From: Asterias rubens
Lineage: Eukaryota
Assembly (NCBI RefSeq): GCF_902459465.1
Contig: NC_047064.1
Location: 10,501,160 to 10,565,159, forward strand
Length of the DNA: 64,000 nt
Direction of reading: 5' to 3'
How positions within the stretch are numbered: position 1 is the first letter of the stretch; each line of letters begins with the position of its first letter. Made by a program: the position numbers and the translations under genes. A model generated the notes under the pieces. The model had not been told where the DNA came from and searched no databases. It worked only from the letters and a program-made list of their open reading frames with translations. Below are positions 4,250-59,905 of the stretch, piece after piece.

Positions 4250-5927
4250 GGCGCAGTGACACAATAAACGGGGAAATGTTATGAAGTCCTCATTAGATGA
4301 GTCTTGAGGGAAGTTTTGAACAAAGCTATTGGTGGAGAAAGTTTAACATGATTCGGCAAGTCGTTCCATAATGAAGGAGCAGCAGAAGTAAATGATCTTT
4401 CACCCCATGATGTTCTGGCCAGGGGTTTCCTTAAAAGATGTTTGTTATTAGATCGCATATAGACTGGCGGTCGGAAATATGGGGTTGGAGTCCTTCTGAG
4501 AGATATGGTGGTAAAGTGCCTTTTGATGAGCGATAGACATACACAAGGATCTTGAAGAAGATTCTTTCCTTAAGTAGCCAATGTAGATCTTGTAGGATAG
4601 GTGTGATGTGTGCTCTAGTTAAGGAGTGTTTGTTCTACCACAAAAATATGTGCCTGTTTACAGTCTGAAACCCTTACTACAAAAAACACTGTGATGTATC
4701 AAGCGGCCGTGTTTATTAATGATCTTAAAGAAAACATTGAAGGATCAAAGAGATATTAACTCACCTGAGCTTTTGTCTGTTGAGAAAAAGCAGAAACATC
4801 CATTTAGAATACAATATAAAAAATAGCATGGAAAAGGTAGGGACTGTAGATTAGTAAATACTAACAAAGTTAATGAAATGAGGAATTGGTAAAGGAATTA
4901 TAGGTATCATAGTTCAAAAGTAGCTAGAAATACCTTGAAGGAAAAAATACTGAGCGCTTTAATATGCCCCTTAATCGCCCCTTAGGGGTCTGATACATGA
5001 CATTAAACTTAACTGTAGATTCGTAAAAATAATCTACAGTTGAGTGTAGATTCATTACAAACTTAAAGTAAATAGTTCAACTTGAAAATTACTGTCCCAA
5101 ACTGAAAGATGGCATGAAGTGCAACAAAACATAGCTGACAATATGTTATCTTTCAAATTACAGAACTAACCCAGTTTAGAAAAATCACTTTAGTAAGTAG
5201 AGTAGACTAACTAGTGTTGTTACTATTGAGAAATCCAATTCCTTGAAACTGTTACAAAACCAATGGGGGAAATAGTTTAAGTCAGAGAATAGACTCTAAA
5301 GTGTAGATTCGTGATTACAATGTACTCGCCTTCAGCTCGTACATTCTATTCCTGAATCTACACTTTCTCCTATATTCTCCTTTAACATATAAGAACTTAG
5401 TATTATTATTATTAATTACCATTTTATGGAGTATGGAATTTGACGCATTGCATGGTGAGGTATCAATAAACATTCGATTATAAGAAGAAACTATAAATAA
5501 ATAGTAAACTTGCGGGTACAACCATGTGTAAATCTCTTAAGGTGAGTGTTGGCTCTGAAAAAAGAGCTGGTTTGGTGTCGCCATCATGTGTGCATCTCCT
5601 TTCTTAGTAGATTATGTTCGTATGAGAATTTTTTTGCTTTAATTTTTACTACCGCTGAGCAGATTTTTTCAGATATCGGGAGACTTCTCAGTTCTGAAAA
5701 GAACTGCTTTTTAACTACCACCTGGGCCGTGGAGGTAGGAAATAGGCTGAGACTACTACCCTAGCTTTAAGTGGATTTAACTTCACTACCGTGAAATGAG
5801 TTTTTAGTTGGGTCTCAATGTTTCGACATAGCTTGCTCTAGTTATCGTCGGTATTATTATTATTATTATTTACCATTTTGATGAGGTTCCTATACACAGA
5901 CTATATCGGAAGGCATTGTGTACGTAC

Positions 5928-7715: not shown

Positions 7716-9075
7716 CTGTCCACGAGAAAACAAGAGGTAAGTTATTGTTTTTATGAAATGGACTAAAATGAAAAAACAAAACAATGAAAACTCATCAATA
7801 ATAATAATAGTGGCTTCTTATATAGCGCTTCAACATTATTACCCCTGGTCACTGGGCCTTAAATCATTCCTTAAACCATCTCAGCTCCTTGTGGAGTATA
7901 CAGCCTGTGCCGCCAAATATGTAGCACAATCAAGGCTAATCAATCACAAGAACCAACTCCTGCCCTCACAGGTACCCATTCACCCCTAGGTGGAGAGAAG
8001 CAATTATAGTGAAGTGTTTTGCTCAGGGACAAAAGTGTCACAACCGAGATTCGAACCCACACTCCGCTGAACAGAATCACCAGAGCTTGAATTCGGTGTT
8101 CTTATTCGCTCGGCCACGACACCCCATAATAAACAAACAAATTATCATAGCATGGGCAAGAAACAAATGCTCTGTACATTTTTAGTCTGCCGTTAGGGTT
8201 GAATGTTAATAAATTGCTGGCAAGTGGACTATTTTGTAAAACGTGAAACCTAATTTCTACTTGCGAAATAGTAAAATACTCCAGGTCTTATGAAGCCCCT
8301 TTTAAGGCATCTGAAAGCACAACAATTTGTGCAACAAGGGTGTTTTTTATTTCAATACTCTCTTGCAAATTTGATGACCAATTGAGTCAAAATTTTCACA
8401 GGTTTGTTATTTTATGCATATGTTGAGAAACACCAAGTAAAAATACGGGTCGTTGACAATTACCAAAGGTGTCCAGTGCCTTTAAAATGAATTTTCAGGC
8501 CTGGAATTTCAACTTTGAGAGGGCAATGCTATTTTCATTTTGCCAATGGCACTTTCATTGCAGAATCTTTAAGTCTAAGAGAAAGTTTTGAAGGGGCAAC
8601 CAAGGCCAGGGGGTGACAGAGGCCACTGCCACCATGTAATTCTAATGTTTGTCTTGAAAAAATGCTTTTGTTGACGGCACATGTTCATCTTGTTGACATT
8701 CCATGGATTATGAACAATGACTGGATTCTTATTTAGTCCAAATTGTTGAGTTTTGTGCTATCACAAAAAAGTGTTTTATATATCTCTAAATAACTATTTT
8801 TCTTTTCCGTGTGTATCTGTAATTTACTGCTAATGCTTTTAATAATTTGTATGGCTTTTGTAAACTGCACATTTTGGCTTTTAGTCGATGTATTCAGTCA
8901 TTTCACTTTCTTATTGCAAAAAAAAGAGAGAAAACGACCAACCACACTTAACTTTGGTAGTGTTTTTCAGTTTTCTCTGGGACTGTTTAAAAAAGAAATA
9001 GAGGAAATCAGCTGAAAAGCTGCATGCTTAAGTATTGCAGTATATTTAATAAACCACTAGTAATAATAAACTTAC

Positions 9076-9261: not shown

Positions 9262-9517
9262 TCTCATATTAATCTTGCTTTTCATATCATTTGGTAATGG
9301 AGAAACACACACAATACAGTAGAGAAGAAAAACAAAATGACTTGTATAACGTATAACGGCACACTTGTACAATGTTGTATGTAACGGTAGTGTGCAAAAA
9401 GAAAAAATAATTCACATAAAATTTGGAAAAATGATAAAAGAATCCACATAAAACTTGTTTTTTTATATCATTTGATAATGGAGAAACAAACATATAACAG
9501 TAAAGAAGAAAAACGAA

Positions 9518-9550: not shown

Positions 9551-10045
9551 GAAACGATTTGTTCAGGGTGGAGTGCCCAAACAGCTAAAATACCGTTGAA
9601 ATAACTCATTAAAAATAGCTAGAATAGAAGAACTACCACACCCCTCCCCCATAAAGCCCCAAATAGACAAATACAAACAACAACCAACCCCTCCCCCCAA
9701 AAAAACCCTCAATACAATACAGGTATAGTGTCCCATTGCAGTTTTAGGGAGAGGGATTTCGACAAATTCAGAAGATCAAATTTGTGAAGTATCAGACCTG
9801 CTGGTTTTTGGAGTGTGGCAGGACGGGGCACACGGTCTTGTTCTATTATAGTATTAAGCGCGGTTCATACTTCTTGCAATGCAAATTTTGGCATCACAGG
9901 GCTGTTTTCACAGCGAAAGGTTTCACAGGAGTTCAGCACAAGTCAACTGATGAGAATTATTTGTTTGCAAATTTTTTGATGTCAAAATTCATATCACATT
10001 CGCAGGAAATTTGGACCAGGCTTTCAAGAACATCCTACTTCATAA

Positions 10046-10076
10046 CAACAATAATAATAATAATAATAATAATAAC

Positions 10077-10168
<92 letters not shown>

Positions 10169-10180
10169 TAATAATAATAA
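10046..10180. repeat. (AAT)n microsatellite, about 135 bp
   Basis: ataataataataataata.. with two aac interruptions. It creates the artefactual poly-Ile ORF 9784..10215. Confidence 0.9.
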
Positions 10181-10694: not shown

Positions 10695-10990
10695 CTTAGC
10701 ACTGTATACTCAGTACTTTCTCGGGTGGGACTCGAACCCACATATCTTGCAATTCTAGGGCAGTGTCTTACCAACTAGACCACTGAGATTGCCCTGTACC
10801 CGCAGCCAAAGTATAGAATTCGAACTGCCTTTAGCAATCAGGCAAAGTAGTCTAGTTGGTAAGACACTGCTCTAGAATTGCAAGAGTCGTGGGTTCCAAT
10901 CCCGCCCAAGTAATATGCATGTGAACATTTTTCACAGAACTCGGGAAAGTACTCGGGAGTAAACACCATGTGTATATCTACTTGCTTGGT
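10695..10990. mobile_element. Inverted pair of tRNA-like SINE family C heads forming a large hairpin
   Basis: ..gtactttctcgggtgggactcgaacccacatatcttgcaattctagggcagtgtcttaccaactagaccact.. (minus copy) and ..ggcaaagtagtctagttggtaagacactgctctagaattgcaagagtcgtgggttccaatcccgcccaagtaatatgcatgtgaacatttttcacagaactcgggaaagtactcgggagt (plus copy). Related copies at 37085..37290 and 59700..59905. Confidence 0.5.
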
Positions 10991-11574: not shown

Positions 11575-11930
11575 TCAAAGATAATAATAACAAATTCTTA
11601 TATAGCGCATTTCACAATAAACCGTATCAGTGCGCTTTACATTAGTCCCCTGGTCATTGGGCCAATAAACATCCCTTTAATCTTTCTCAGCTCCCACTAG
11701 GGAGTATACAGCCCCGAGATGCTGTGGCGCTCCGAAAGCTTTTCATTCACAATATCAACCTCTACCCTCGCAGGTACCCATTTCTACCCCTGGGTGAAGA
11801 GAAGCAATTTTAGTAAAGTATCTTGCTCAAGGACACAAGTGTCACGACCGGGATTCAGACCTACACTCCGGTGACTGCACCAGAACTTGAATTCGATGCT
11901 CTTAACCACTCGGCCGCGACACTCTACAAA
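11575..11930 (-). mobile_element. SINE family B copy (tRNA-like head shared with family A, different body)
   Basis: Tail ataataataacaaattcttatatagcgcatttcacaataaaccgtatcagtgcgctttacattagtcccctggtcattgggcc .. head ..gtcacgaccgggattcagacctacactccggtgactgcaccagaacttgaattcgatgctcttaaccactcggccgcgacac. Further copies: 7795..8130(-), 22565..22745(+, 5' half), 40262..40557(-), 42415..42770(-), 49555..49745(-, 3' part), 55430..55720(-), 55975..56115(-, head only), 57545..57725(-). Confidence 0.6.
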
Positions 11931-19039: not shown

Positions 19040-19990
19040 AGGTCCCTGCCGTCCATTTCACAAGGAGTTAGGACTCGTCTAACTTAGGATTTATCTTAAG
19101 GTCTGTATGCTACAGTGCAGGGTTGGGACTCATCCTAAATAATCTAAAGTTAGGAAGAATTTTGTGAAATCGACGGCTGGTTCAAATCCTTCTGGGAGCA
19201 CTATGTTAATTGAGCTTTCAGTCCCAATCTGCTGGCAGGGATCTTCTATTTTGGGTGCGTTCGTTTAGATTCTCTGGGTCTGTCCCGTGGTGCTCACTCG
19301 GGTGAGCCCCTGACAAGAGCTCATGGTGACGTCGTTTACCCGGGGCCAGCCCCCAAGTGACCCACTCCACAAACAGGGCACTGGGGGCTGACCTGGGTGA
19401 GCCCCTGGACTGACGTCAAAAGCTATCCAAACACACCGGGACAGACCGGGGATGACCCAGGGAAGCTAAACGAATGCACCCCTAGTAAATTATCTGGGCT
19501 TTTCCTGAAATCTCCTACTTTTTCTTCTCTTCACGTGGTACGTACTTGGCTAGTTAAGCAATTGAGTTCAGTTTTCTGAGAATTATTGGCTTCACAATCA
19601 GGGGTCGATTTCACAAAGAGTTAGGACTTGTCTTATCTCGAGTTAGGACAGGCGAGTAACTCGTCCTAACTTAGGATTAATCTTAAAGTCTGCATGCTAC
19701 AGTGCAAGGCTGGGACTCGTCCTAAGTCCTAAGATTAGTCTTAAGTTAGGAAGAGTTCTGTGAAATCGACGGCTGGTTCAAATCTTTCTGGGAGCACTAT
19801 GTTGATTGAGTTTTCAGTCCCAATCCAATTGCAGAGATCTTCCCTTTAGTAAATTATCTGGGCTTTTCCTGAAATCTCCTACTTTTTTATCTGTTCACGA
19901 GGTACTTGGCTAGTTTAGAAATTGAGCTAAATTTCGTGAGAATTCTTGGCTTCACAACCAGAGTGAAACAAAACAATTCTTGCATCTTAC
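19040..19990. repeat. Intronic tandem segmental duplication (2 x about 480 bp), each copy containing a MITE-E plus flanks
   Basis: 19045..19260 ~ 19601..19860 (MITE-E + gttcaaatc[ct]ttctgggagcactatgtt[ag]attgag.. flank) and 19480..19600 ~ 19850..19975 (agtaaattatctgggcttttcctgaaatctcctacttttt..ttggcttcacaa[tc]cag). Confidence 0.6.
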
Positions 19991-21789: not shown

Positions 21790-22090
21790 AAACTGTAATA
21801 TCTATATATTTGAGTAGGATTTGAAACTTTGCATGGTGGAAGTAAGATATAGAAAAGTTTGCGGTAACACCATGTAATAACAATCTCTAAATGAGTTGGG
21901 GTGGTTCTGAAAAGAACCGTTGGATTAACTCGACGTTTCGATCAGTATGCTCTGATTCTCCAGAAGACGATCAGAGCATACTGATCGAAACGTCGAGTTA
22001 ATCCAACGGTTCTTTTCAGAACCACCCCAACTCATTTAGAGATTGTTATTACATGGTGTTACCGCAAACTTTTCTATATATATATTTGAG
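21790..22090. mobile_element. MITE family G copy (near-perfect 300-bp hairpin)
   Basis: gagtaggatttgaaactttgcatggtggaagtaagatatagaaaagtttgcggtaacaccatgtaataacaatctctaaatgagttggggtggttctgaaaagaaccgttggattaactcgacgtttcgatcagtatgctctgattctccagaagacgatcagagcatactgatcgaaacgtcgagttaatccaacggttcttttcagaaccaccccaactcatttagagattgttattacatggtgttaccgcaaacttttctatat. Confidence 0.65.
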
Positions 22091-23370: not shown

Positions 23371-23615
23371 AGGGTCGTCAAACAAGCCAATCCAGACACT
23401 TTGATCCGCTTTCATGACCATGGATTGCAACTTGGCCTGCTCGTAACCGTTGCGGATCGAGGCCACGTTTGCTCCATCCTTCTGGCAGAACGTCTTGGCT
23501 TCCTCAAATGTCCTCTTAGTAGTGATGTCAACCTTGAAGCAGGCATCTCCGTACTTCTCGTACTCAGGCAAGCCGTCACACTTCGGCGGGGTGGTTGGAT
23601 TTGTGTATTTATCAT
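23371..23615 (-). CDS. exon: linker + CTLD10 N-terminal part through WIGL
   Basis: D-DKYTNPTTPPKCDGLPEYEKYGDACFKVDITTKRTFEEAKTFCQKDGANVASIRNGYEQAKLQSMVMKADQSVWIGLFDDP; acceptor tcatttcag|, donor GACCCT|gtaatt; phase 1 in, 0 out. Confidence 0.7.
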
Positions 23616-23689
23616 CTGAAATGATACCATGGTTGATCATAAGAAAATTAGTATTTGTTTCTTTCAAATTAGTATTACCAGGTTTCATG

Positions 23690-24610
23690 AAACAACAGTA
23701 AGGTACTACAGGGATGAGACTGCATGTTAGTACATGTACATATGTATCACCAGGTATCATGAGACAAAGTTAAAGTACTTAGAATGAGAATGCATGTTAG
23801 TTACCAGGTATCATGAGACAAAAGTAAAGTACTAAGGATGAGACTGCATGTTAGTATCACCAGGATTCATGACACAAAGGTAAAGTACTTAGAATGAGAC
23901 TGCATGTTAGTTACCAGGTTTCATGACACAAAGGTAAAGTACCAAGGGAGAGACTGCATGTTAGTATTACTAGGTATCATGACACAAAGGTAAAGTAGTA
24001 AGAACGCGATACTGCATACTAGTATTACCAGGTTTCATGACACAAAGGTAAAGTACTATTGATGAGACTGCATGTTATTATTACCAAGTTTCGTGACACA
24101 AAGGTAAATTACTAATGAGGAGATTGCATGTTAGTATTACCAGATTTCATGACACAAAGGTAAAGTACTAAGGATGGGACTGCATGTTGGTATAACCAGG
24201 TATCATGACACATAGGTAAAGTACTAATGATGAGACTGCATATGTATTACCAGGTTTTATGACACAAAGGCAAAGTACTAAGGACGGGACTGCATGTTAG
24301 TATTACCAGGTTTCATGACACAAAGGTTAAGTATTAAGGATGGGACTGCCTATAGTTTTACCAGGTATCATGACACATATGTAAAGTACTAATGATGAGA
24401 CTGTATGTTAGTATTACCAGGTTTCATGACACAAAGGTAAAGTAATAAGGTTGAGACTGCATGTTAGCATTACCAGGTTTCTTGACACAAAGTTAAAGTA
24501 CCAGGGTGAGACTGCATGTTAGTATATCACCAGGTTTCTTGACACAAAGTTAAAGTACTAATGATGAGACTGTACATTAGTATTACCAGGTTTCATGACA
24601 CAAAGGTAGC
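23690..24610. repeat. Minisatellite, about 56-57 bp unit x about 16
   Basis: Unit taccaggtttcatgacacaaaggtaaagtactaaggatgagactgcatgttagtat with about 10-15% divergence between units. On the gene strand each unit reads ..ctttgtgtcatgaaacctggtaatactaa.., which is the 3' end of exon 24587..24698 plus its donor. Confidence 0.8.
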
Positions 24611-24698
24611 TGTTGAGGGCCATACAGTCCACATCATTCCAGCGGCCTGGTTCCTCTTCCTCATTCATCATCAAGACACAGTCTGTTCGATTTCCCAT
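24587..24698 (-). CDS. exon: CTLD9 C-terminal part (WND..C)
   Basis: MGNRTDCVLMMNEEEEPGRWNDVDCMALNSYLCVMKP; acceptor gcataattcag|, donor ACCTG|gtaata; phase 0 in, 1 out. The 3' end of the exon is the first unit of the downstream 56-bp minisatellite. Confidence 0.65.
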
Positions 24699-26275
24699 CT
24701 GAATTATGCAAAATAATCAAACAATACAATAAAGCAAACAAAATAGTAAAACACAATTGTATCTTACAGCATGGTTGCATCAACGCTGTGTGGTGGTGGT
24801 TGCATTTTGACTTTTCGCCACAGTTATAAAACAAACTAAATGCAATCATGACAGAGCCTTGGTTTTGAAAAAATAAGACATACATGTACATGTACCAGTA
24901 CAAAGGCAATCTTTGGAATTAAAGGGGCTGTATATGGTTGGTAATGAAAATTATTGACAATAAAAACACACTTGTAAAGAAGCACATAGTATAATACATT
25001 TGTAGACACTTTTCACATCAAAGTACTGCGGTTATATGGAAAAGATATCACTTATTATCCACAAACGTTTGAATCTGAGAAACATTACCGACAGTAATGT
25101 TTCTCAGATTGTCTTTTGCAGATTATTCTTTCTGCGTGGACATAAATGCTCCAGATTTTTGGCAAAATCGAAAATACACAATCACCTTTTGAAATTTGGA
25201 CATAGTTTTGTGATGTCTACATTTATATGTACATGTATATATAGAATTGAGAATTCTCCCTTGGTGTATCCAAACATATTCATAAAATAACAGTTCTTTT
25301 GAAATTTGGACTCAATTGGTTATCAAAAGTGCAAGAGACAGGCCTAGAGAAAATAAAAACCCCCTTGTTGCACAAATTAGTGTGCTTTCAGATGCCTTGT
25401 AAAAAAAGGCTTCAGGCCTGAAATCGTTTAATATTTGAGTGAGAAATGATGTTACATCAGAGGGAACCATTTCTAATAATGTTTATACTATCAAAAGCAT
25501 CCTCAAGACATTTCTTTTTCCCCACCCATCCTAGTTTGTTTGTTTTTCTTTTGTTTTGTTGTCATAGTCTCATGTAAAGCGCTCTGTTCTCCGTAGAGCG
25601 CTATATAAATGTTTCATATTATTATTATTATTATTATTAACAGGGCCCAATTTCATAGCGCTGCTAAGCACAAAAATTTGCTTAGCATGAAATTTCTTCC
25701 TTAATAAAAACAGGATTACCAACCAAACTCCATTTGTTGCATGTTGGTTCTTACACTGGTATGCAGCTGTTGTTTGCTTTTCCTGGAAATCACGTGGAAA
25801 TTTGGTTGGCATTCCTATTTTTATCAAGGGAGAAATTTCATGCTAAGCAAATTTGTGTGCTTAGCAGCGCTATGAAATTGGACTCAGCTCTCAGTTGCTT
25901 GTTACCAAGTAAGTTTTTATGCTACCAATTATTTTAAGTACATACCAATAGTGTCCAGTGCCTATAGGCAAACAACCGACACTAAACACCTGGGCCCAAT
26001 TTCATAGCGCTGCTTAATGGTAAGCAAATTTTTGTGCTTACTGCAGCAGAAAATGTTGCTTAGGTATATACAAGTGTATTTCACAGGTTAGCAGTTAGCA
26101 GAAAAAATAGGGACCATAACATTGTGATGATATTTATTTTTGTGCACTGCGCACCGAAAGGTTAGCATGCCTTTTTGTGTGCTTACAGTCATCAGCACTA
26201 TGAAATGGAAATTGCACAGTAAGCACAAAATTGGCTGCTAAGCAGCTGTATGAAATTTGGCCCTGAATGACTTAC

Positions 26276-26421
26276 AAAGGGCCAATCAGGTTGGTTGAAG
26301 CCCCAGTTGAAGTAGTCTGTCGGTGTGTTGTCTGCCCACAGGAAGTTACCGCTGCTACCAAGGGATGACATACCAATCCACACATCAAAGTTGACATCAA
26401 TCAGGTCAGCTGTCAAGTAGG
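26276..26421 (-). CDS. exon: CTLD9 middle part (QPD)
   Basis: T-YLTADLIDVNFDVWIGMSSLGSSGNFLWADNTPTDYFNWGFNQPDWPF; acceptor cccctatgcag| (alternative ..ttgacag| 12 nt downstream), donor CCCTTT|gtaagt; phase 1 in, 0 out. Confidence 0.65.
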
Positions 26422-26679
26422 CTGCATAGGGGCAAGATGTACATGTAAGGGTATATTTAAAAATGATTTGGGTACAAGAAGCTGCTGTGCACTCTGCAGC
26501 CACTGCCAAACCGGGGGAAACCCCTTTTCCTGGAAGTTCATACATTACACAACAAATGGGACCAACGGCTTTTACATCCCATCCAAACGACAGAATAGCC
26601 ACATTTTGTGTATTATTTCGCAATACTACATGTACTTTACATGTATATACAAGGGACAGTGTGCTGGAAATGAGTACTA

Positions 26680-27090
26680 TCCTCTGCACAGCGGTATCGT
26701 GTATGGACTCCAGGCTTGCGATAGTATACAAGGGAAACTATTTTCGAAAGGAATAGACAAATCCAGGCGCGCAAGTGCTGGGCACTATGCGCCGCTGCTG
26801 CGGTGTACACGTGCCTAGTTTTATGCACATTGACATGAGAAAATCATGTTCCTGTTCACTCTTTCTGGAAATAAGATGTTTTCCTCAACGACTTACATAG
26901 TTTCCTTAACAGAACATCATCTATACCAATAGATATCTATACCAAACACCATCTATACTTACTCTGCACAGCGATATCCAGGCTGGCGAAAGTATGTTTC
27001 CGAAAGGAATACTTACTCTGCACAGCGATATCGTGTATGGACGCCAGGCTAGCGTACTTTACAAGGGAAACGGTTTCCGAAAATACTTAC
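26680..27090. repeat. Tandem copies of the 3' end + splice donor of exon 27091..27357
   Basis: Gene-strand motif agcctggc[ag]tccatacacgata[ct]cgctgtgcagagtaagtat occurs at the true donor (27085-27100) and again about 27010-27060 and 26955-27000. A degraded 4th copy lies at 26680-26760 (donor lost). Spacing is about 55-75 bp. Confidence 0.7.
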
Positions 27091-27357
27091 TCTGCACAGC
27101 GGTATCGTGTATGGATGCCAGGCTAGCCGCTGCATTCAAGGTTTGACACTCCTTCCTGGCATCTTGCCAATTCTTCTTGGATCCTTCGTTCTTTCCACCA
27201 ATGGTGTAGCAACGATTGTTGTATTTTTTCCAGCCGTTTGGACACTCGCCGGTCGGAGGTGTGGTTGGTGCATGTGTTACCAGAGGAACGTCGTCCACGG
27301 TTTTCTGGCAGATGAACTTTGCCCAGTCGCCACAGTTGTTGTCTCTCCATTCACCAG
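27091..27357 (-). CDS. exon: CTLD8 C-terminus + Pro/Thr linker + CTLD9 N-terminal part
   Basis: T-GEWRDNNCGDWAKFICQKTVDDVPLVTHAPTTPPTGECPNGWKKYNNRCYTIGGKNEGSKKNWQDARKECQTLNAAASLASIHDTAVQ; acceptor catacccag|, donor GTGCAGA|gtaagt; phase 1 in, 1 out. Confidence 0.75.
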
Positions 27358-28104: not shown

Positions 28105-28412
28105 GACCTATTCCTTTGAAGCACCATGTAATCATTTACAAGGTGCTGCGGCCCAATATGCTGCCAATAAAACCAGGAACACCACAGCTAACCCCTTCTC
28201 TTTTCAATAAGCGCACTGGGTTCTTTTACAAGCGTTACTCAGCACACAGGACCAACAGCTTTACATCCCATCCACAGGCCGAAGCAATGGTTTAGTGTCA
28301 TACTTAAGGACACAAGTGTGTCATGACTGGGACTCGACCCCACACTCTGCTGAACAGAAATCCCAGAGTTTGAATTCAGTTCTCTTAACTGCTCGGCCAT
28401 GACAGTTAGGTG
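28105..28412 (-). mobile_element. SINE family A copy (5' portion); 3' portion of another copy at 28840..29000 on +
   Basis: ..cttaaggacacaagtgtgtcatgactgggactcgaccccacactctgctgaacagaaatcccagagtttgaattcagttctcttaactgctcggccatgacag. Confidence 0.5.
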
Positions 28413-30675: not shown

Positions 30676-33600
30676 CTGAGACGAAAAACAAGGTGCAAAA
30701 TTTACATGTAGTCAACTTGCATTACGTGAATCTGTGAATTTTAAATAGGATTTAAAACTTTGCATGGTAGAAATACAATATGGAAAGGTTTGCGGTAACA
30801 TGTAATGACTACCATGTATCTCTCAATGAAAGCTTTCTCCAGAAGACGATCAGCGCATACTGATCGAAACGTCGAGTTGAAACCAACGGTTCTTTTCAGA
30901 ACCACCCCAAGTGTGAATTTTAATCGCCAGTTTATATCTGTGTGACTTCTAAGCGGGCACTGGACACTATCGGAAATTACTCAAAATGATTGTTAGCATA
31001 AAAACTTACTTGGTAAGGAGAAAATGGAGAGCTGTTGGTAGTATAAAACATTGTGAGAAATGGCTCCCTCTGAATTAAGGTAGTTTTTGAGGAGGAAGTA
31101 ATGTAATTTCTCACTAAAATATTTGAATTGAATTCGAGACCTCAGGCGTCTGAAAGCACACAACTTGTGTGACAAGGGTGCTTTTTCTTCCTTTATTCTC
31201 TCGCAACCTTCGACGACCAATTGAGTTAAAATTTTCACAGGCTTGTTATTTTATGCACATGTTGAGATACAACAAGTGAGAAGACGGGCCTTTGACAATT
31301 ACCAAAGGTGTCCAAAGTCTTTAACTGTGTTATCAGTAAAGTAGTTGTTTTACAACAATTCATCCTTGAAACAACTTTCCAAGGGCTAGTAATCCTGACC
31401 CACATGCATATTTGCTGGTGTCAAATAATGAAATTGTTGAAGAGCACAGAGAAAGTCCTGCAGTTTCTTATTTGAATTCTCAAAATAGTATTTGGTCAAT
31501 TTTTATGTTTCAAAGTTACTTTGACCATAGTTAATTCCTATATAACTATTTATTTATTATTTCCTTTAAGATTATATTGTTTCTGTACAATTAAAGGTGC
31601 TTTAGATTTTGTTACATTTCTATGTACTGTTTAGTTCTTACAATTGTCCTTTTTCTACAGCGAGAGTATGGAATAAACCTATTATTTAATTGAATTGAAT
31701 AATTTCATTATGATATTTAACACTGTTTCCCGATTCTTCACACAGGATGTTGAAACGGAAATTAAATTCATTTCCCTTCGCCCAATGTTTACTGTATTCA
31801 GAAAGAAATTATATGATTCCATTGGTCAAAGTGACACAGATTTCAGTATCTTATCTAAGAAGGACAAATTTATTTTCCTAATGAGCTCTCAGGATAAAAC
31901 CACTATGAATTGTGTTACGAAGTACTTATTCTCTGCTTTTAAGTTAAAGGAACACGTTGCCCTTGATCGGTCGAGTTGGTCTTTGAAAAGCGTTTGAAAT
32001 CGTTTGTTATGAAATGCATATGGTAAGAAAGATATTTTAAAGGGCTCAAACTCATCTCTTTTAAATGTAATAATAAAACCTATCTTTTTAATACCGCTTT
32101 TTAGCTTTTTTATGTCTTCTTCTATGGTCACCTCGCCAGTTAGTTTAGAATTTTAGCATAGATAGGGTTAGAGGCGTCTGTCTCCTGAAAAGGTCAAAAC
32201 ATTACCGATGCCAGCAGAGATAGGCCTATGTAATAAGTAATTAATTAGTTCTCTGTTGGCAGGACAGACATATCCCCATACTTTTGTTTGGGCACTGGCC
32301 TGGTGACCAGTCTTTTTTCTTTGTCTTTTTCTTCCACTCTGCCCTTTTTAACAAGTGTTCTGCGCCTCTGATCATTTTGTATGTAAGGGGCAATATAAAT
32401 TTTAAATATTATTATTATTATTATTAAAGATATTTTAAAAGCAGAATATAATGATCCACACAAACATGCCTCGAAATTTCAAGGTTTTCCTTTTACATCG
32501 CAAAGAAACACTGTCGGCCATTTTGTGGAGTCAAAATTTGGACTCCATAAACTGCCAACCGTGTTAGTTCGCGACGTAAAAAGAATACCGTGCAATTTTG
32601 AGACATGTTTGTTTGGATCATTATATTCTACTTTTAAAATTTCTTTCTAACCGTATGCATTTCAAAAGAAACAGTTTCAAACGCTTTTCAAAGACCAACT
32701 CGACTGGTCCAAGGCAACATGTTCCTTTAAAGGAAACCCAAACATAATTTAATATTTGATCATGCTAAACTCTCCTTCTTTGTTATATTGTTGTAACCCT
32801 TCCCAAGGGTATGGGGTTTGTTCCATTAAAATGAAAAACTCAATACTATACAATTATAAGCAAGAACCTCCTGGTGAGCAGATTCCTGCGATAACATTAT
32901 GTGAATCCATCCAAGGCTGGACTACACAGCAGCACAAATCAAAAGTCTATTTCAGTTTTTTTCTTCTTCCCATTTATAAATTTATACTGCAATATTAACT
33001 TGCCTGTTGGAATTGTTGGCGCTGGGGTTGTTATAACGCTATCCCCTGGAACAGAAACGCATCACAAGAAACAATTAAACACAATACTAAATTTGAGAAA
33101 TTGTTTTATCACATTGTGGCTATAATAATAATAATAGTGGCTTCTCATAGCCCACAAATTCGTCACTCAGCAACGCTCATGGTGCTTCAACATTCAGTGT
33201 TTTCCTGCAAGGTATGTGGAGCTACAAGTGTAACACTATTTTCTAAACAAAACACCATGTAATGGTTAACAAGGTACTGTGGCACAATATGCAGCCAATC
33301 AAACCAGGAACACCGGTGGCGAAACCACTCGTCTTCACGATAAGTACACTGGGTTCTTTTGACGTGCATTACACAACAAACTGTCAACAACCTCCGTCTA
33401 CGGCCATATTTCCATTCGACTTCCGCTACCGCGCGGTGAAATGACCGTGACTGACTTTGTGTAATTCTACCATGTGTTCCCACCTGGACTTACATTTCGT
33501 GAAGTTTGTATAGCGTTTTATAGCAAGTCGAGGTAGGTTTTTACAGAGCGGAGCTGTTTCCATTGGATTTGTTAGCACCCCTGTAAAGGTACGTGGCTGC

Positions 33601-34299: not shown

Positions 34300-34650
34300 T
34301 ATATATAAACATCAAAGTCTTATATAGCGCACGTATCTACCAAACAAGGTACTCAAGGCGCTGAGTATATACAAACTTTCAGAAAGATATGTTATTGCAG
34401 TGAGGAATTCTGAGACCCATTTATTTAGCACCTTCTAAGGGTTTACAAGGTGCTACGGCGCATAAAGCAGCCACAGCCAGGAACACCGGGGCAAACCCCT
34501 TCTCTTTTTGATATCGGTAAGTGCACTAGGTTCTTTTACATGCGTTACACAACACATTACATGCGTTACACAACGGCTTTATGTCCCATCCGAAGGACGA
34601 ATGGTTAAGTGTCTTGCTTAAGGACACAAGTGTCACAGCAGGAAACGAGC
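34300..34650 (-). mobile_element. SINE family A copy
   Basis: Tail catcaaagtcttatatagcgcacgtatctaccaaacaaggtactcaaggcgctgagtatatacaaactttcag .. head region ..cttgcttaaggacacaagtgtcacagcagg. Confidence 0.5.
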
Positions 34651-38190: not shown

Positions 38191-38339
38191 CAGGTTGTCC
38201 TTCAGCCCAGTTGGTGTAGGTGACTGAAGATCCATCCATCCACTCATAGAGTCCTGGTGTTTTACTGTCGCTGAAACCGATGAAGAAATCATCGCCATTC
38301 TCCATTCCCAGCTGAGCACTCAGGAAAGACAACTCATAC
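38191..38339 (-). CDS. exon: CTLD6 middle part
   Basis: K-YELSFLSAQLGMENGDDFFIGFSDSKTPGLYEWMDGSSVTYTNWAEGQP; acceptor (caaa)n..tgttacag|, donor CCTG|gtcaga (weak); phase 2 in, 1 out. Confidence 0.6.
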
Positions 38340-39408
38340 CTGTAACAAAAAAACAAACAAACAAACAAACAGATGCTCTAAATAAACAAGGTAGTGTTTT
38401 CATCCCGATACAAATTGTATTGCTTGCCAAATTCACTCTTGGGTTAATCTGGGACAGTTAACTGAACGCTGAGCTGTATGTTTCATTCAAGAATATTACA
38501 TGACAAAGCAGTCTGAGCCGAGCACATGCGAAAGATAACTCATACCTTTAAAAGAAAAAAGGCAGTTGCTCTTAATAACAAATTTCTAAAGCTCTTTTGA
38601 CACTACTCTGCCTAGGGTCGCCCCAGGGAATAACAGCCAGCCTTTTCATCACACTAAAGCACCTTTCATACTTATAGCCCTATATAGGACTCTTCCTCTG
38701 TACACAGATACAGAGTCCTAAGTATGAAGGCCCGTTTCTAGGGCGGAAAATTTTCAAAGCCTCATAACTCAAATCTTACCTGCAACAAGCCACTAATTTC
38801 AACAGAATCACATTCTATGGCGGCATACATTTTTCTGTAGTGGGTTTTGGTCCTCATGTATTCCTCACAAGTCCGTCATTTTCTTGAAATAATGCAGCTC
38901 CCAACATTAAAAAATTCCCGTTTTGATCGTTTTCTCGATCAATACTAGTGGGAAATGAAAGCGAGTTTTGCTTACCCCAGTTTATGTCTTGCAAACGGCA
39001 GACAGTACAAATTTACCCCCTAATGTGAAACATGCGCCGGGGTAACCGTGGGGTAAAAAAAGTCCTGCGGCCTCCCTAGTACTGTATTCCACAGTATGAA
39101 AATTGGGTTTAAGTCACTTTCCAGTTTCACTCGGGGTCATTTTTCATTCTGGGATTGTTCAAGAACAGTTAACTGACAGCTGAGTTGTGTGTTTACATTG
39201 AAGAAAATCAGACTTATCACTTTTACTTTTTTTTTTTCCTTGTAATTGCATAGCTCAAGAGCTGTTTTAATGTTTTACTGATTTATCAGTATGCAAGCAT
39301 TTGAACTACTCCTATTTGATCTAGGAAAGAGTAGTTGAATTAAATTGAAATTGAATTCAATATGAATCTATAGAGTGTATTTCAAACAGTTGATCAGTGC
39401 ATATTTAC

Positions 39409-39594: not shown

Positions 39595-39790
39595 AATTTT
39601 TAAATGATTTTTAGGGTTGAACAAAGAGTTGACTAGAGTGGGATTAGAACCAATGACCTCCGGATTAATGTGCCAGCGCTCTACCAACTGAGCTATCTAG
39701 CACTATGTTTGCAGTGTCCCTATTTTGTCAGGATCTTTGTTCGAGGGTGCCAGTCAGAATTTTAGTGATCATTTTATTTATTCTGGTTTC
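39595..39790 (-). mobile_element. tRNA-derived SINE family D copy
   Basis: The reverse complement reads gtgctagatagctcagttggtagagcgctggcacattaatccggaggtcattggttctaatccc (tRNA-like, but the anticodon stem does not pair) followed by ..ctggcaccctcgaacaaagatcctgacaaaatagggacactgc. Related copies at 43655..43870 and 45470..45720, plus a fragment at 45740..45790. Confidence 0.5.
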
Positions 39791-40574
39791 GAAGCCAAGG
39801 ACTCTCGGAAAAGCCAAAGAACCCAATGGAGAGAAGACAAGGAAGTAACAGTTTTAGATGTTGGAGGTAAACCCCAGAGAAATATTCCAGGGAAAACCTA
39901 CGCAGTCAGGTAGGTACTTCAAACCCAATCCCTGGGAACCTACAGCTTAATGTCTCATGACAAAGCAACTATGGTAAAATTGCTCGAGGACATAAAAGCC
40001 ACGACCGAGACTCAAACCCTCACTCTGCTATTAACAGAAACCACTCAGCCGAAGACAAGCCACTTCACGCAGAGTGAATTATGTGACGCAAATAATCAGG
40101 TACGCAAGGAAGTGTGCGTCGCTTTTGCAGTTCATATGAAGTATAACCCTGTAAGCTTTATGAATAAATCTCAAAGACATCATCAGGTTAAGGGTTTAAA
40201 TCTGTATCTACTCTAGTAGACAGCTCTGTACGTTGTTTGAAGCTTTGCATTGTGAGAAAAATAACAAGTAATAATAAAAGTAATGATAACAACCAGTTTT
40301 GATATAGCGCTTATCACACAAGGGCATCTAAGCTCCCTTTGCAACAACTATGGGCAACTAAGCTAAATCAATCACAAGAACCATCTCTGCCCTCACAGGT
40401 ACCCAATTACCCATGGGTGGAGAGAAGCAATCATAGTTAAATGTCTTGCTCAGGGACACAAGTGTCATGACCGGGACTTGAACCCACAATCTGCAGAACA
40501 GAAGCACCAAAGCTTGAGTTTGGTGCTCTTATCCACTCGGCCACGACACCCTAAGTAACTATAACTAGTAAACT

Positions 40575-43088: not shown

Positions 43089-44343
43089 CTGCCAAAAAGA
43101 AACACAGATAAAATATTATTATGTAGTCCGCCAGCACACCCTACTCGATTTCACAAAGATCTAAGATTGATCATAACTGCAAATCAAGCGTAGTTGCTGA
43201 GAACAGTGTGACATCACAATACAAATCTGGCAAAAAGAAACACAGATAAAATATTATTATGTTGTCCGCCAGCACACCCTACCCTTAATCAAATCTTTTC
43301 TGTCTTCTATGAAGGCAACCAGTTCTGGGCCCAATTTCATGGCTCTGCTTACCGTTACCAAAGAATCAGTGCTTACTGAAGCAGGAAATTCCCCCCTTAC
43401 GCCAAGCAAATTTCACAGGTTCACATTTTTGCTTGTGTGCTTGCGTACTCCACGTTACTGAGCATTGTTTGCGTAACAAGCTATAGCGCAGAAGATCGAC
43501 ACCCGCACAGTAAGCAGAGAGTGGTAATTGCAAGCATAAAAATAAGTGGTAAGCAGAGCCCTGATAAATAGGGCCCTGTTGTGGTCTCCGCACCAGTATC
43601 ACACCAGAGGACACCTACATAGCCAGTCCTCTGTCTGCTGTCAGCCTTACCCCATGAGTTGATTCCCACAAGAAAAAATTACCAGAGCGGGATTTAAACC
43701 AACAACCTCTGGAATGCTGTACCTGCGCTCTACAAACTGAGCTATCATGCCCTACGTTGGCGGTCTCCCTAATTTGTCACAACTTTGTTCAGGGGTGCCA
43801 GTCAAAAGCCATATAACCGCCAACTGCCGTGTAGCCCGGGATCACATCCAAGTTTATGCTACAACCAGGGAAGCGGCAAACTGGGAAATCTCCTTATAAA
43901 GGGGATGCTTATTTCTATTTCAGATATCAAATATTACACCACAAGAGAAACCGACTGATTTTCAGTAATTTTGGGTCATTCTGTGTGGCTGCTCCACGAG
44001 TTTGGAACACTCTCACATCCCTGTAGTGCATCAAGTCCAGTTTTAAAGACATATTTGTTCAAGCATTCTTTCTAATTCTGATTCAGTATCATGTTTTCTG
44101 TGTTATAATGGACCATTAATTTCCTCTATGTGCGACTTGGGTGTCTTTATCGACAGATATGTGCGTAGTATAAGTAAACTATTATTGAACAAAGACAACA
44201 AAATCACAGGTAAGCTGCGTAGTATTTAAAAAAAAAAAAGAGAATTTGACTAAAATGTTTGTTAAAAAAATCAGTGATAGGTCACTTTTAGGAAGAATTT
44301 AGACAATCCTTTGTTAAAACCAATCTGTTTTTATATTGCCTAC

Positions 44344-44589
44344 CTCTCTCATAGTAGTCAAAGTGCTGCGATTCAAACGATGGTACAAGTCCTCCCGCCA
44401 CGTTCTTGTCGGTCTTACTGAGGTAGCATGTCATCTTGTTGCGTTCGTAGTCAAATGAGCGACAGGTGAAGTCTGTTTCGGTGACGCAGCGTCTTGCGCA
44501 CTCACTCGGAAAGATGTTCTTCAGCGTCTTGTCGTCGTTTCCAAGGAGCTGCTTCTCGGGGAATGAGATGTAATACTTGAAGATGTAAT
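44344..44589 (-). CDS. exon: PAN/apple-like domain (single-exon module between CTLD4 and CTLD5)
   Basis: D-YIFKYYISFPEKQLLGNDDKTLKNIFPSECARRCVTETDFTCRSFDYERNKMTCYLSKTDKNVAGGLVPSFESQHFDYYER; 4-Cys pattern C-x3-C-x7-C-x(10-11)-C with F/Y-rich flanks typical of PAN_1; acceptor cttactctag|, donor GAGAG|gtaggc; phase 1 in, 1 out, a symmetric module. Confidence 0.6.
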
Positions 44590-45177
44590 CTAGAGTAAGG
44601 GAAGACAATGATCAGGGCGGATCAGGCGGCAGTCCAACTTTTTCAACATTTCGGACTTCACAATGCCCATCCCTGTTAAATACTGTTAAGTATTAACAGT
44701 TACTAATAGTTTTAGTTAATTACTTAGCCCTGGCGACCTTACACTTTCGTATTATACTACAGTGACGTCCTGGATATCAGGGTCCATTTCTGGGGCGGAA
44801 AATTTTCAAAGCTTCATAACTCAAAGCTTCCTGCAAGAAGCCACCAATTTCAACAGATTCACATTAACTGGCAGCATACATTTTTCGGCGGTGGGTTTTG
44901 GTCGTCATATGTTCCTCACAAAAAAAAATCCCGTTTTTGATCGTATTCTCACAGTCTGCCGTGCGTACACAAGATGCAAATATCGTGCATTTCGTTTGCG
45001 TGTTAACGCTGGCAGTCAAGATATTACATGAACTTATACCCGTACACACAGCAGCAGAGAACACAGTGGGAATATGATCAAAACAGGAATTTTTTAACGC
45101 TGAGAGCTACATTATTAAATAGACCAGGTGGGCAGTGTTCACAGCAACTCAAGAAAAACCAGAAACGGAGCATTTAC

Positions 45178-51934: not shown

Positions 51935-52330
51935 TTGTTAAAGGAACACGTCGCTTGGATCGGACGAGTTGGTCTATAAAAAGCATTTATAACCATTTGT
52001 TATAAATTGCATATTGTTGGAAAGATGTTTTAAAAGTAGAATACAATGATCCACACAAATTTGCCTCGAAATTGCACGGTTTTCCCTTTACCTCGTCGAT
52101 GAACACGGTTGGCCATTTATGGGAGTCAAATTTTTGACTCCCATAAATGGCCGACCGTGCAAAGTAAAATGAAAACCACGCAATTTCGAGGCAAATTTGT
52201 GTGGATCATTGTATTCTACTTTTAAAACATCTTTCCAACCATATGCATTTTATAACAAACGGTTACAAAGGCTTTTCAAAGACCAACTCGACTGATCCAA
52301 GGCAACGTGTTCCTTTAACAGTGATGAAAT
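51935..52330. mobile_element. MITE family I copy (complete foldback), abutting the LINE fragment
   Basis: aaaggaacacgtcgcttggatcggacgagttggtctataaaaagcatttataaccatttgttataaattgcatattgttggaaagatgttttaaaagtagaatacaatgatccacacaaatttgcctcgaaattgcacggttttccc .. gggaaaaccacgcaatttcgaggcaaatttgtgtggatcattgtattctacttttaaaacatctttccaaccatatgcattttataacaaacggttacaaaggcttttcaaagaccaactcgactgatccaaggcaacgtgttccttt. Confidence 0.6.
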
Positions 52331-53110
52331 GTCCATTTTGTCACTCCTGGCATCTCCCGCATTGCATCTCCCTCATGCCCAATGTTCAACTGCAAATTGG
52401 AGATGAAATTATCACACCCACTAAAACTGTTCGGAACCTTGGCATTGTCTTTGACAATCTTATGTCTATGTCTTCACAAATAACATCATTGTCTAGGTCT
52501 GTGTCATACTATCTGCGTAACATTACACGTATAAGAAGGTTTCTAGACGTTGACACATGTAGAAGTGTTACAAGGTCTCTTGTTCTTTCACGATTGGACT
52601 ATGGCAACGCACTTTTACTTGGAGCAAAAACAAATCAAATTAATAGACTTCAACATCTTCAGAATTGGGCTGCCAAACTAATACTTTGTGCTTCTAAACA
52701 ACTCTTTTCTCAAAAAGCTACATTGGCTCCTGGTGAAAGAGCGCATTCAATTCAAAATATTGGTGCATGTGTATAAATGCTTAAATGGACTTGCACCAGC
52801 ATATCTTTCATCTTGTTTTTCTTTTCACATTCAAACTAGGGCTGGGCTTCGCTCAGCATCAGACAAAATCCGTCTTGCTGAAAATAAACCGAGCAGCAAA
52901 TCTCTTCAATCCGCTGCATCTAAATCATTTTCCTAAGCCGCTCCAGGACTGTGGAACCGTCTTCCCATCACAATACGCACCTCAATTTCACTGCCTATTT
53001 TCAAGAAAGCACTTAAAAAACATCTTTTTCCTTAGTGTCTGTTTATTGCTTTATTGTTCATTTGTTGTATTATCTGCATTGCTATTGTTCGTTTAAAGCG
53101 CTGTGGTCTA
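52325..53110 (+). mobile_element. Truncated non-LTR retrotransposon (LINE) ORF2 C-terminal fragment
   Basis: Track ORFs 52201..52776 and 52688..52936 (frameshifted). They read ..TVRNLGIVFDNLMSMSSQITSLSRSVSYYLRNITRIRRFLDVDTCRSVTRSLVLSRLDYGNALLLGAKTNQINRLQHLQNWAAKLI.. and ..LHWLLVKERIQFKILVHVYKCLNGLAPAYLSSCF..LRSAS.., matching the conserved region downstream of the RT domain in L2/CR1-type LINEs. The first ~40 aa of the track ORF are MITE-I sequence. Ends in (gtatt)n at 53140..53165. Confidence 0.55.
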
Positions 53111-55429: not shown

Positions 55430-55720
55430 TCTAATAACCGTCTCAATGCGCATTACATATAGTGCCCTGATCATAGGGCCAATAACATCCCTTTAATCTT
55501 TCTCAGCTCCCTGGGGAGTATACAACATGGGCAACCTAGCTCTCCAAGGCTTTATCAAACCCAATATCAACCTCTACCCTCGTAGGTACCCATATACCCC
55601 TGGGTGAAGAGAAGCAAGAGTAAAGTATCTTGCTCAAGGACAAAAGTGTCACAAACAGGATTTGAACCCTCACCCAAATGACTTAACCCACTTTGCCATG
55701 ACACCTCATCACTGGGCACG
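55430..55720 (-). mobile_element. SINE family B copy
   Basis: ..tgcgcattacatatagtgccctgatcatagggccaataacatccctttaatctttctcagctccctggggagtatacaac .. aagtgtcacaaacaggatttgaaccctcacccaaatgacttaacccactttgccatgacacc. Confidence 0.55.
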
Positions 55721-59699: not shown

Positions 59700-59905
59700 C
59701 ATCGGTCCTTAACATCGGATTCAAACTGCCTCTAGCTACCGAGCAACCTCGGTAGTCTAGTTGGTAAGACACTGCTCTAGAATTGCAAGGGTCGTGGGTT
59801 CGAATCCCACTCAAGTAACATGCCTGTGATATTTTTTTCACAGGACTCGGGAAAGTACTGAGTATACAGTGCTAACACACATCTGTGTATGGGTAAAAAA
59901 CCAAG
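59700..59905 (+). mobile_element. tRNA-like SINE family C copy, followed by a 100-bp palindrome (59890..59995)
   Basis: ggtagtctagttggtaagacactgctctagaattgcaagggtcgtgggttcgaatcccactcaagtaacatgcctgtgatatttttttcacaggactcgggaaagtactgagtatacagtgctaacacacatctgtgtatgggtaaaaaaccaag. Then ataacatcggtcctatcacgactgtgataggatcgatgttat. Confidence 0.5.

Follow-up and report, generated by a model that had tools for sequence, protein, structure and literature searches.

Two exons of a single lectin domain each have their 3' end and splice donor repeated in tandem within the downstream intron. The two arrays are in all likelihood intronic minisatellites of the "mirage" type, generated by neutral tandem duplication and by slippage or unequal exchange, with the most upstream donor used for splicing at each junction. 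The exons concerned lie in the window, the term used here for the whole 64-kb stretch of DNA that was analysed, and are henceforth referred to as follows:

Exon A, 27091..27357, minus strand: end of the preceding CTLD, linker and first third of the affected CTLD (translation and Pfam Lectin_C)
Exon B, 26276..26421, minus strand: middle third of the CTLD
Exon C, 24587..24698, minus strand: last third of the CTLD (translation and Pfam)
Exon D, 23371..23615, minus strand: start of the next CTLD and acceptor exon of the VNTR-bearing intron

When spliced together, the 3' half of exon A, exon B and exon C encode one complete Pfam Lectin_C (PF00059) domain (E=9.9e-30, profile positions 2-106/107), and at least 15 further CTLD-like exon sets are present on the same strand of the window. 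The coordinates given for exons A, B and C in a preliminary description of the locus were reproduced from the junctions and the translation, and its assignment of both amplified exons to one lectin domain was confirmed by the single Lectin_C match extending over all three exons; the ordinal CTLD9 given there depends on a gene model and is putative. Exon A ends in phase 1 with ...GCTGTGCAGA and the following intron begins with GTAAGTAT, the authentic donor being the GTAAGT at 27090-27085. The exon A boundary had previously been drawn one base off, the last exonic bases being ...CAGA and the first intronic ones GTAAGT. Exon C ends with ...CATGAAACCTG and its intron starts with GTAATACT, a junction derived from the translation; the exon closes with ...TACCTTTGTGTCATGAAACCTG in phase 1, and its authentic donor is the GTAATA at 24586-24581. 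The start of the next exon after exon C was also corrected, to 23615. No repeats were found at the exon B junctions.

The larger of the two arrays begins inside exon C and continues through the intron:

56-bp VNTR, 23667..24608, minus strand: ~16.4 units (TRF and unit table; seen again in scaffolds L002, L003 and L004)
Pseudo-donors of exon C, 16 sites, minus strand: G at 24530, 24473, 24417, 24361, 24306, 24250, 24196, 24140, 24084, 24028, 23970, 23914, 23860, 23804, 23750 and 23678

The first unit of the VNTR consists of the final 22 nt of exon C (rather than the ~25 nt originally proposed) and the initial 34 nt of the intron. For the 56-bp period, TRF gave 15.5 copies at 23744-24608 (83% matches, score 1148), making this the largest array in the window. 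A register scan identified 16 donor-like sites in register with the authentic exon C donor, 17 sites in total, which bears out the earlier reading of a 56-bp minisatellite seeded by the exon end and its donor. The unit core, searched with up to three mismatches, matched 16 times in the window against 0.01 matches expected, and all of these matches fall inside the array. The dinucleotide GT is present in 17/17 sites, seven of which match the authentic donor over a 9-mer. The proposal that every unit retains gtaata was too broad, since the site hexamers comprise GTAATA (nine of 17), GTGATA (three), GTAACT (two) and one each of GTAATG, GTAAAA and GTTATA. The units are ~9% diverged from their consensus and each is individually recognisable. 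A 110-bp period was also reported by TRF, units 13 and 15 share 91% identity, GTGATAC is common to units 14 and 16, and variants are common to units 1, 4 and 7. These are local two- and three-unit footprints; a regular higher-order repeat was considered and rejected, as the units were on average hardly more alike at lag 2 (mean identity 0.814) than at lag 1 (0.793).

At exon A, the repeated segment is present in fewer copies:

Exon A repeat unit 1, 27054..27127, minus strand: 74 nt, 37 nt from the exon end and 37 nt from the intron start, authentic donor included (repeat search, exact 19-mer)
Exon A repeat unit 2, 27000..27053, minus strand: 54 nt, copy of the exon end with two substitutions and an identical pseudo-donor, AGA/GTAAGT, with GT at 27016 (+74 nt)
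Exon A repeat unit 3, 26955..26999, minus strand: exon-end copy that has an internal deletion; its pseudo-donor is identical and has its GT at 26962 (+128 nt)
Exon A repeat unit 4, 26667..26749, minus strand: detached and decayed copy of the intron part and the exon end (self-BLAST, repeat search)

The 19-mer CGCTGTGCAGAGTAAGTAT occurs exactly three times in the window (GT at 27090, 27016 and 26962) where no occurrence is expected. In unit 4, self-BLAST aligned the exon-end copy (26682-26719) to 27090-27127 at 92% identity, and the donor GT of this copy is now GG, so that GT is retained in three of the four exon A sites. Both searches thus agree with the earlier count of three intact copies of the motif and one degraded copy. 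The copies differ from one another by substitutions, indels and a deletion. As had been noted, use of the pseudo-donors at +74 or +128 would shift the reading frame, and both extensions run into an in-frame stop.

Variation in the exon C array was assessed with L002, L003 and L004, three environmental scaffolds of this species that were obtained independently from other samples and match the window at ~99%. The sample names suggest metagenomes of seawater from the Mediterranean coast. Exact-ORF look-ups for same-species scaffolds gave matches solely for the exon C to exon D interval; they found no scaffold for exons A and B or for the proximal intron. The last eight units of the array are reproduced in L002, private variants included. 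There are 17 units in the window and in L004 and 19 in L003, in which the extra 112-nt two-unit block adjoins the exon; its two outer units are identical. Further small indels and SNPs were observed among the haplotypes, and variable columns made up 1.8% of the array, 2.1% of the other intron sequence and 0.3% of the exons. One haplotype carries an insertion at the pseudo-donor at 24361, and others carry substitutions just 5' of two more pseudo-donors (24422 and 24315). The recurrence of the exon C array in three scaffolds, with 19 rather than 17 units in one of them, establishes it as a genuine VNTR rather than a product of assembly. The array still varies in copy number in the population, and the copy-number polymorphism that had been predicted for the locus holds for it.

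Protein homology searching returned a single ORF, from an environmental contig of a related species (L001), with 75-83% amino-acid identity to the window over 18 collinear conserved blocks. Both exon ends and their junctions are present in this ortholog (exon A at 5528-5791 and exon C at 7057-7164 of L001), where the junction sequences are single-copy and no tandem repeat was found in either intron. What the 56-bp unit has taken from the exon is the conserved CTLD coding end (...CVMKP), which is found in L001 too. Judged by this comparison, both arrays are lineage-specific and the exonic part of their units is ancestral. The donors in L001 are GTGAAA at exon C, which is equally non-consensus, and GTAATA at exon A, which is weaker than that in the window.

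Donor strength was estimated by U1 duplex energy and by an approximate position matrix, and the scores are indicative only. On this scale the authentic exon C donor, CTG/GTAATA, is weak, ranking 13 of 17 window donors by U1 pairing and scoring ~0.9 bits with the approximate matrix, and among its 16 pseudo-donors 14 pair with U1 equally well (~-5 kcal/mol, likewise indicative). Both exon A pseudo-donors match their authentic donor over 19 nt. This near-equal pairing and the 19-nt identity make some use of the pseudo-donors plausible, as in IFI6 and CBS. All pseudo-donors (18/18) are followed through to an in-frame stop, a TAG nine codons past exon C or a TAA ten codons past exon A; at each junction the open reading frame is maintained by the first donor only.

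No constraint on the exon C array was detected, either across unit positions or in haplotype diversity relative to the flanking intron. The mismatch rate against the array consensus was 12.2% at donor positions +1 to +6, compared with 6.7% for exon-derived positions and 10.1% for the remainder, differences that are not significant (p ~0.23-0.34). When units were compared with unit 1, the exon-derived and donor part appeared three times better conserved, but against the array consensus the difference was not significant, and selection on that part of the units was rejected. The apparent conservation arose from the use of unit 1 as the reference, as its exonic part is under coding selection.

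The chance of finding two such arrays was modelled by random placement of the 12 tandem duplications of the window. At least two junction-spanning events were obtained in ~10% of random trials, and at least two donor-side events in 2.8% (P=0.028); the value falls to P=0.004 if the two donor-side events are further required to be no more than two exons apart, a restriction imposed post hoc. Two arrays in one domain are only mildly unusual, and the word "striking" in the preliminary description overstated the case. Its further remark that the pattern occurs nowhere else in the window stood in part: downstream copies were found at no other donor junction in the 64 kb, but one weak acceptor-side junction copy was observed near 38560. 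Repeats at 19847-19961 and 9265-9338 were rejected as junction copies because they end ~18-30 nt short of the junction and resemble transposable-element copies. Rfam and tRNA scans revealed nothing bearing on the arrays. Hairpin-driven slippage was likewise rejected for the 56-bp units, as their folding as single-stranded DNA was no more stable than that of shuffled sequences (z=+0.85). The exon A repeat region was weakly more stable (z=-1.84, with 11/200 shuffles at least as stable), which does not support such a mechanism.

Several other explanations were weighed. Assembly often goes wrong in tandem repeats, and the copies at exon A are known from the window alone, yet collapsed or expanded repeats are a very improbable source of the arrays. 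Artefactual expansion would give identical copies, not units ~9% diverged; unit order and private variants of the exon C array recur in three scaffolds at ~99% identity; and the exon A copies have accumulated their own substitutions, indels and deletion. A satellite derived from a transposable element and inserted beside the exon, with a resemblance arising by chance, is comparably improbable. The window is indeed rich in interspersed repeats that the related species has too, but the unit core and the exon A 19-mer are confined to the two arrays within the 64-kb window, the exon-derived part is a conserved CTLD coding end, and the array stands in exact register with the junction. The evenly spaced ladder of GT sites of similar strength could also suggest alternative 5' splice sites yielding extended lectin isoforms, given that the first two pseudo-sites are used in IFI6 and CBS (PMC1557585). 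Every extension contains an in-frame stop, so an extended protein is impossible and this explanation has hardly any likelihood.

Somewhat less improbable, though still unlikely, is a function of the arrays as decoy donors, whether by loading U1 for a weak donor, by blocking premature cleavage and polyadenylation or by tuning expression through unproductive splicing. The weakness of the authentic exon C donor, the retention of GT in all 17 sites, the matching U1 pairing of 14/16 pseudo-donors, the perfect copying of a strong donor at exon A and the occurrence of two arrays in a single domain would all fit such a role. Against it, the ortholog lacks the arrays although its exon C donor is just as far from consensus and its exon A donor is weaker, donor positions are kept no more strictly than the rest of the unit, and the array varies as the neighbouring intron does and in copy number. 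[quoted passage not shown] The decoy-donor, U1-titration and alternative 5' site readings raised in the preliminary description found no support, given unconserved donor positions, haplotype changes at or near pseudo-donors and premature stops. It is improbable, too, that the ladders are used by the cell in a wider sense, as a U1 platform, in length-tuned expression of an immune-type lectin, or as a boundary shift or intron birth under way.

The duplication and slippage reading, which had been offered as the other option, fits all of the evidence, namely lineage specificity, variable copy number, neutral intronic variation and multi-unit footprints. Under neutral duplication, 22 nt of exon end and 34 nt of intron would have been duplicated in tandem at exon C, and 37 nt of exon end and ~37 nt of intron at exon A, both in the lineage of the species. 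Replication slippage or unequal exchange would then have enlarged the arrays and renewed their units, frequently two or three units at a time; this mechanism is suggested by the arrangement of the units. The duplicated exon ends lie 3' of the first donor and are simply intronic as a result, and the gene would be unaffected for as long as the spliceosome takes the most upstream donor. Exclusive use of that donor is probable because it alone keeps the frame, because the junction is conserved in the ortholog and because precedents behave in this way. The downstream pseudo-donors would be expected to be silent, and their occasional use would give premature-stop transcripts that are degraded. The arrays themselves are probably without function.

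Junction-spanning minisatellites were recognised in human genes decades ago and in lancelets in 2002. In intron 7 of human F7, a VNTR of a 37-bp monomer is present in 5-9 copies, with the first monomer over the exon-intron boundary, and similar arrays occur in IFI6 (6-16) intron 2, CBS intron 13, LMNB2 and PDGFA intron 4 (PMC1557585). The most upstream site is used in these genes (PMC1557585), and the pseudo-sites of experimentally studied precedents are silent or marginally used (PMC1557585; PMC3087553). The human arrays resemble those described here in having a series of identical or near-identical pseudo-donors downstream of the authentic donor, in their variable copy number and in their range of sizes (units of 37-100 bp, 5-25 copies). 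By contrast, the present units have diverged further and are older (~83% matches), the gene that carries them encodes an invertebrate lectin, a single domain is affected at two of its junctions and the donor choice is presumed; the exonic share is also larger than in F7 (22 and 37 nt versus 4 nt).

Lancelet mirages have been described in Adh3, troponin C, the globins BflGb6 and BflGb9, and PGBD5; their length varies between haplotypes, their units are 81-100% identical, AG/GT is kept in many of them, splicing is reportedly undisturbed and several can occur in one gene (PMC3087553, PMC3902484). Somatic instability and intron gain have been discussed for them (PMC3087553, PMC3902484). In comparison, clear copies in the window are donor-side only, accompanied by the weak acceptor-side relic near 38560. 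The model of Rogers, in which introns are gained or boundaries shifted by duplication of an AG/GT segment (PMC3087553), draws on the same raw material, extra and potentially usable splice sites. Unlike in that model, the duplicated exon pieces here carry in-frame stops and sit within a pre-existing intron, with no sign of a new intron or exon.

The exon C array shares with VNTRs and mirages its head-to-tail units, the exon end in its first unit, the repeated GT and the variable copy number, and the exon A copies share the tandem spacing (74 and 54 nt), the exon end in the first unit and the repeated GT. Features expected of a functional array are lacking, as the arrays are not conserved in the ortholog and, at the exon C array, neither donor positions nor diversity show constraint. 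The locus behaves like a neutral example of an already known class of minisatellite. Gene predictors may pick the wrong donor at such junctions, which is a warning for annotation, and the locus is usable as a polymorphic marker. Its value is modest and lies in providing a natural test case of 5' splice-site choice outside vertebrates, with three donors identical over 19 nt and spaced 74 and 54 nt apart at exon A, and a weak donor followed by 16 near-equal competitors at exon C.

A large multi-CTLD gene lies on the minus strand of the window, with many C-type-lectin-like exon sets detectable in it. The exons of the C-type lectin domain referred to as CTLD9, and the exon that follows them, are listed below with a slash marking the exon-intron boundary.

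27091-27357, minus strand, exon A, ending ...GCTGTGCAGA/GTAAGTAT
26276-26421, minus strand, exon B
24587-24698, minus strand, exon C, ending ...CATGAAACCTG/GTAATACT
starting at 23615, minus strand, exon D, the exon following exon C

The coordinates of exons A, B and C in the preliminary description are correct, with AG/GT boundaries throughout and an unbroken reading frame. When spliced, the 3' half of exon A together with exons B and C forms a single complete lectin domain, matching Pfam Lectin_C over profile positions 2-106 of 107 (E=9.9e-30). Within a set of 17 donors of the gene that hold the same positions in the ortholog, that of exon A is one of the stronger, and that of exon C, ranked 13th of 17 by U1 pairing, is weak yet within range. 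The window has T at 23371, the final base of exon D (donor -1), where three of three environmental haplotypes have G; the difference is synonymous (CCT or CCG, Pro), and the T weakens the already poor donor CCT/GTAATT (U1 pairing, -1.4 kcal/mol). An open segment between CTLD exons (44291-44611, minus strand) codes for a PAN/apple domain (Pfam PAN_1, E=2.5e-13). Either this domain is an addition to the same protein or a second multi-CTLD gene begins here, and the numbering "CTLD9" is affected by which reading applies.

The tandem array at exon C was identified by Tandem Repeats Finder at 23744-24608 (period 56 bp, 15.5 copies, 83% matches, score 1148); no other array of the window approaches it in size, and it extends 22 nt into the exon. 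An in-register scan located 17 donor-like sites, comprising the authentic donor (G at 24586) and 16 intronic copies, or pseudo-donors, the last at 23678. The sites are spaced 54-58 nt apart with the single exception of a 72-nt unit containing an insertion. The earlier claim that every unit retains gtaata holds for the GT, kept at 17 of 17 sites, but not for the full motif: GTAATA is present at only nine, the others reading GTGATA (three), GTAACT (two), GTAATG, GTAAAA and GTTATA. The exact 9-mer CTG/GTAATA is common to seven sites, and 14 of the 16 pseudo-donors equal the authentic site in pairing with the U1 5' end (about -5 kcal/mol). Allowing up to three mismatches, the unit core gave 16 matches (0.01 expected), all inside the array, and none elsewhere in the 64-kb window. 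In most 56-bp units (23667-24608) the GT is directly followed by TACTAAC, a perfect branch-point consensus, and seven nt on by CAG. On paper, each unit thus holds donor-, branch-point- and acceptor-like signals, and splicing inside the array is conceivable from its sequence.

At exon A, there are exactly three occurrences of the 19-mer CGCTGTGCAGAGTAAGTAT (0 expected), giving the following GT sites.

27090, minus strand, authentic donor
27016, minus strand, pseudo-donor (+74)
26962, minus strand, pseudo-donor (+128)

The second copy retains the full 37-nt exon end with two substitutions, and the third has an internal deletion. A fourth copy lies approximately 400 nt downstream, where 26682-26719 is 92% identical to 27090-27127; the intronic part of the unit, also copied, stands before this match, and the GT has become GG. 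Read-through meets TAA 10 codons after exon A and TAG nine codons after exon C, so use of any of the 18 pseudo-donors would lead to a premature stop regardless of extension length, and none can yield a protein isoform.

A protein search returned a sole homologue, on L001, which is an environmental contig of 15.8 kb from a related species. Eighteen conserved blocks, almost all exons, are collinear between L001 and window 37730-13721; exons A-D share 75-83% amino-acid identity and the introns are unalignable. The junctions occupy the same places (...GTCCAGA/GTAATATT and ...CATGAAACCAG/GTGAAATA), each junction sequence is single-copy in L001, and the two corresponding introns contain no tandem repeats. 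The exonic part of the units is thus ancestral as coding sequence, the arrays being later additions within the lineage of the window.

Despite the unalignable orthologous introns, interspersed repeat families at 70-85% identity are common to both species (L001 2677-2786 and 11094-11277; in the window, for example, 7964-8064, 11766-11839, 28174-28349, 34478-34630, 40391-40462 and 55578-55672). Other repeats and elements of the window are as follows.

380-511, 43-bp tandem repeat, 3.1 copies, 94% matches, with single diverged unit copies at 33244-33289 and 34420-34465
10042-10180, (ATA)46 microsatellite
10717-10789 (minus), 10847-10906 (plus), 39630-39702 (minus) and 59746-59817 (plus), tRNA-like sequences inside or near lectin gene introns
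21877-21923 (minus) and 22003-22049 (plus), Rfam 'Histone 3' UTR stem-loop' matches, 35.6 bits each, an inverted pair in an intron
52168-52773 (plus), 202-codon open segment similar to a LINE reverse transcriptase (C-terminal part)

The LINE-like segment is one of several transposable-element fragments opposite the gene strand. The tRNA-like sequences, two of which were called tRNA-Ser(AGA) by ARAGORN, are probably tRNA-derived SINE heads, and the stem-loop pair probably belongs to a transposable element and not to a histone gene. The single copies of the 43-bp unit approximately 33 kb away suggest that this repeat is carried by a transposable element.

Three same-species scaffolds from different environmental metagenome samples were retrieved by exact look-up of the read-through ORFs. 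L002 (1329 nt) aligns to window 24129-22806 with 99.1% identity and carries the last eight units in the same order, private variants included, with only one substitution in the array. In L004 (2264 nt), which runs from exon C to exon D, the array has 17 units but differs by several small indels and substitutions; the first ~65 nt of this scaffold, set against window 25560-25495, align to neither the window nor L003 and reflect either an upstream-intron insertion/deletion polymorphism or a chimeric scaffold end. L003 (2500 nt) has 19 units (17.5 copies by Tandem Repeats Finder), including an extra 112-nt two-unit block directly after the exon; both outer units are identical to each other, which points to a recent event. 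The exon C array is thus a real, copy-number-variable VNTR, as the preliminary description had predicted. Variants touching the pseudo-donor region include a T insertion at the 24361 site and substitutions, at 24422 and 24315, just upstream of two other sites. As tabulated below, the array varies like neutral intron.

Variable columns in the four-way alignment, with the 112-nt indel and the ~65 nt of unalignable sequence at the start of L004 set aside.
Array: 17/924 (1.8%)
Other intron sequence: 30/~1420 (2.1%)
Exons C and D: 1/359 (0.3%)

The mismatch rate against the array consensus (units 2-16) was 6.7% for the 19 exon-derived nt, 12.2% for donor +1 to +6 and 10.1% for the other 31 nt, with no significant difference between unit parts (Fisher p=0.34; column resampling p=0.23). 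A three-fold better conservation of the exon-derived part was rejected, as it appeared only because unit 1 had served as the reference. No unusual folding propensity of the repeat DNA was found. The units are related by local two- and three-unit duplications with no regular higher-order repeat, as is usual for minisatellites turning over through slippage or unequal exchange.

In self-BLAST and in a sensitive 24-mer scan of all 44 coding blocks, exons A and C were the only ones with downstream donor-junction copies, as previously stated, but the rarity of such copies had been overstated. When founding duplications of the 12 tandem arrays of the window (units of at least 20 nt) were placed at random, a mean of 0.54 events spanned a junction, with P(>=2)=0.10 and P(>=2 on the donor side)=0.028; requiring the donor-side events to be no more than two exons apart, a criterion set post hoc, gave P=0.004. 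The coincidence is mildly unusual and not compelling for an observation picked from a scan. One weak acceptor-side copy near 38560 (76% identity, ~206 nt upstream of the real acceptor) fits the local-repeat background, a local copy at the same threshold being found at ~5% of random control positions versus 3/88 junction tests. It relates 38486-38586 (minus strand) to 38280-38380, takes in the acceptor region and ~35 nt from the start of a CTLD exon, reads AAG in place of CAG, and may be an old junction duplicate.

Similar arrays are known elsewhere. The human F7 intron 7 VNTR has a 37-bp monomer in 5-9 copies, the first across the exon 7 boundary (Borensztajn et al. 2006, PMC1557585); its pseudo-sites are identical and functional in principle, yet silent, the most upstream site being selected. 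Further such genes are IFI6 (25 pseudo-sites, first two used), CBS, LMNB2 and PDGFA (PMC1557585). Lancelet mirage minisatellites are length-unstable, have units 81-100% identical and leave splicing undisturbed, and are a suggested source of material for intron gain (PMC3087553, PMC3902484). The arrays at exons A and C agree with this class in every structural criterion tested, and we infer donor use from their anatomy and these precedents.

The arrays begin within exons and are lineage-specific, and that at exon C varies in copy number and, at a neutral rate, in sequence. Very probably, tandem duplication founded the arrays and slippage or unequal exchange enlarged them, the first donor would be the one used by the spliceosome, and the copies would have no function, occasional use of a pseudo-donor being removed by nonsense-mediated decay. 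Slippage had been offered earlier as an alternative, and lineage specificity, local multi-unit duplications and copy-number variation support it. The decoy idea put forward alongside it is unsupported, and a functional decoy or tuning role for the arrays is improbable. Even less credence can be given to an assembly artefact, since the exon C array is reproduced in all three scaffolds, or to protein isoforms, since every pseudo-donor leads to a premature stop; a transposable-element origin of the arrays is likewise highly improbable. Boundary-spanning array architecture is already well documented, and this lectin locus is a further instance of it.
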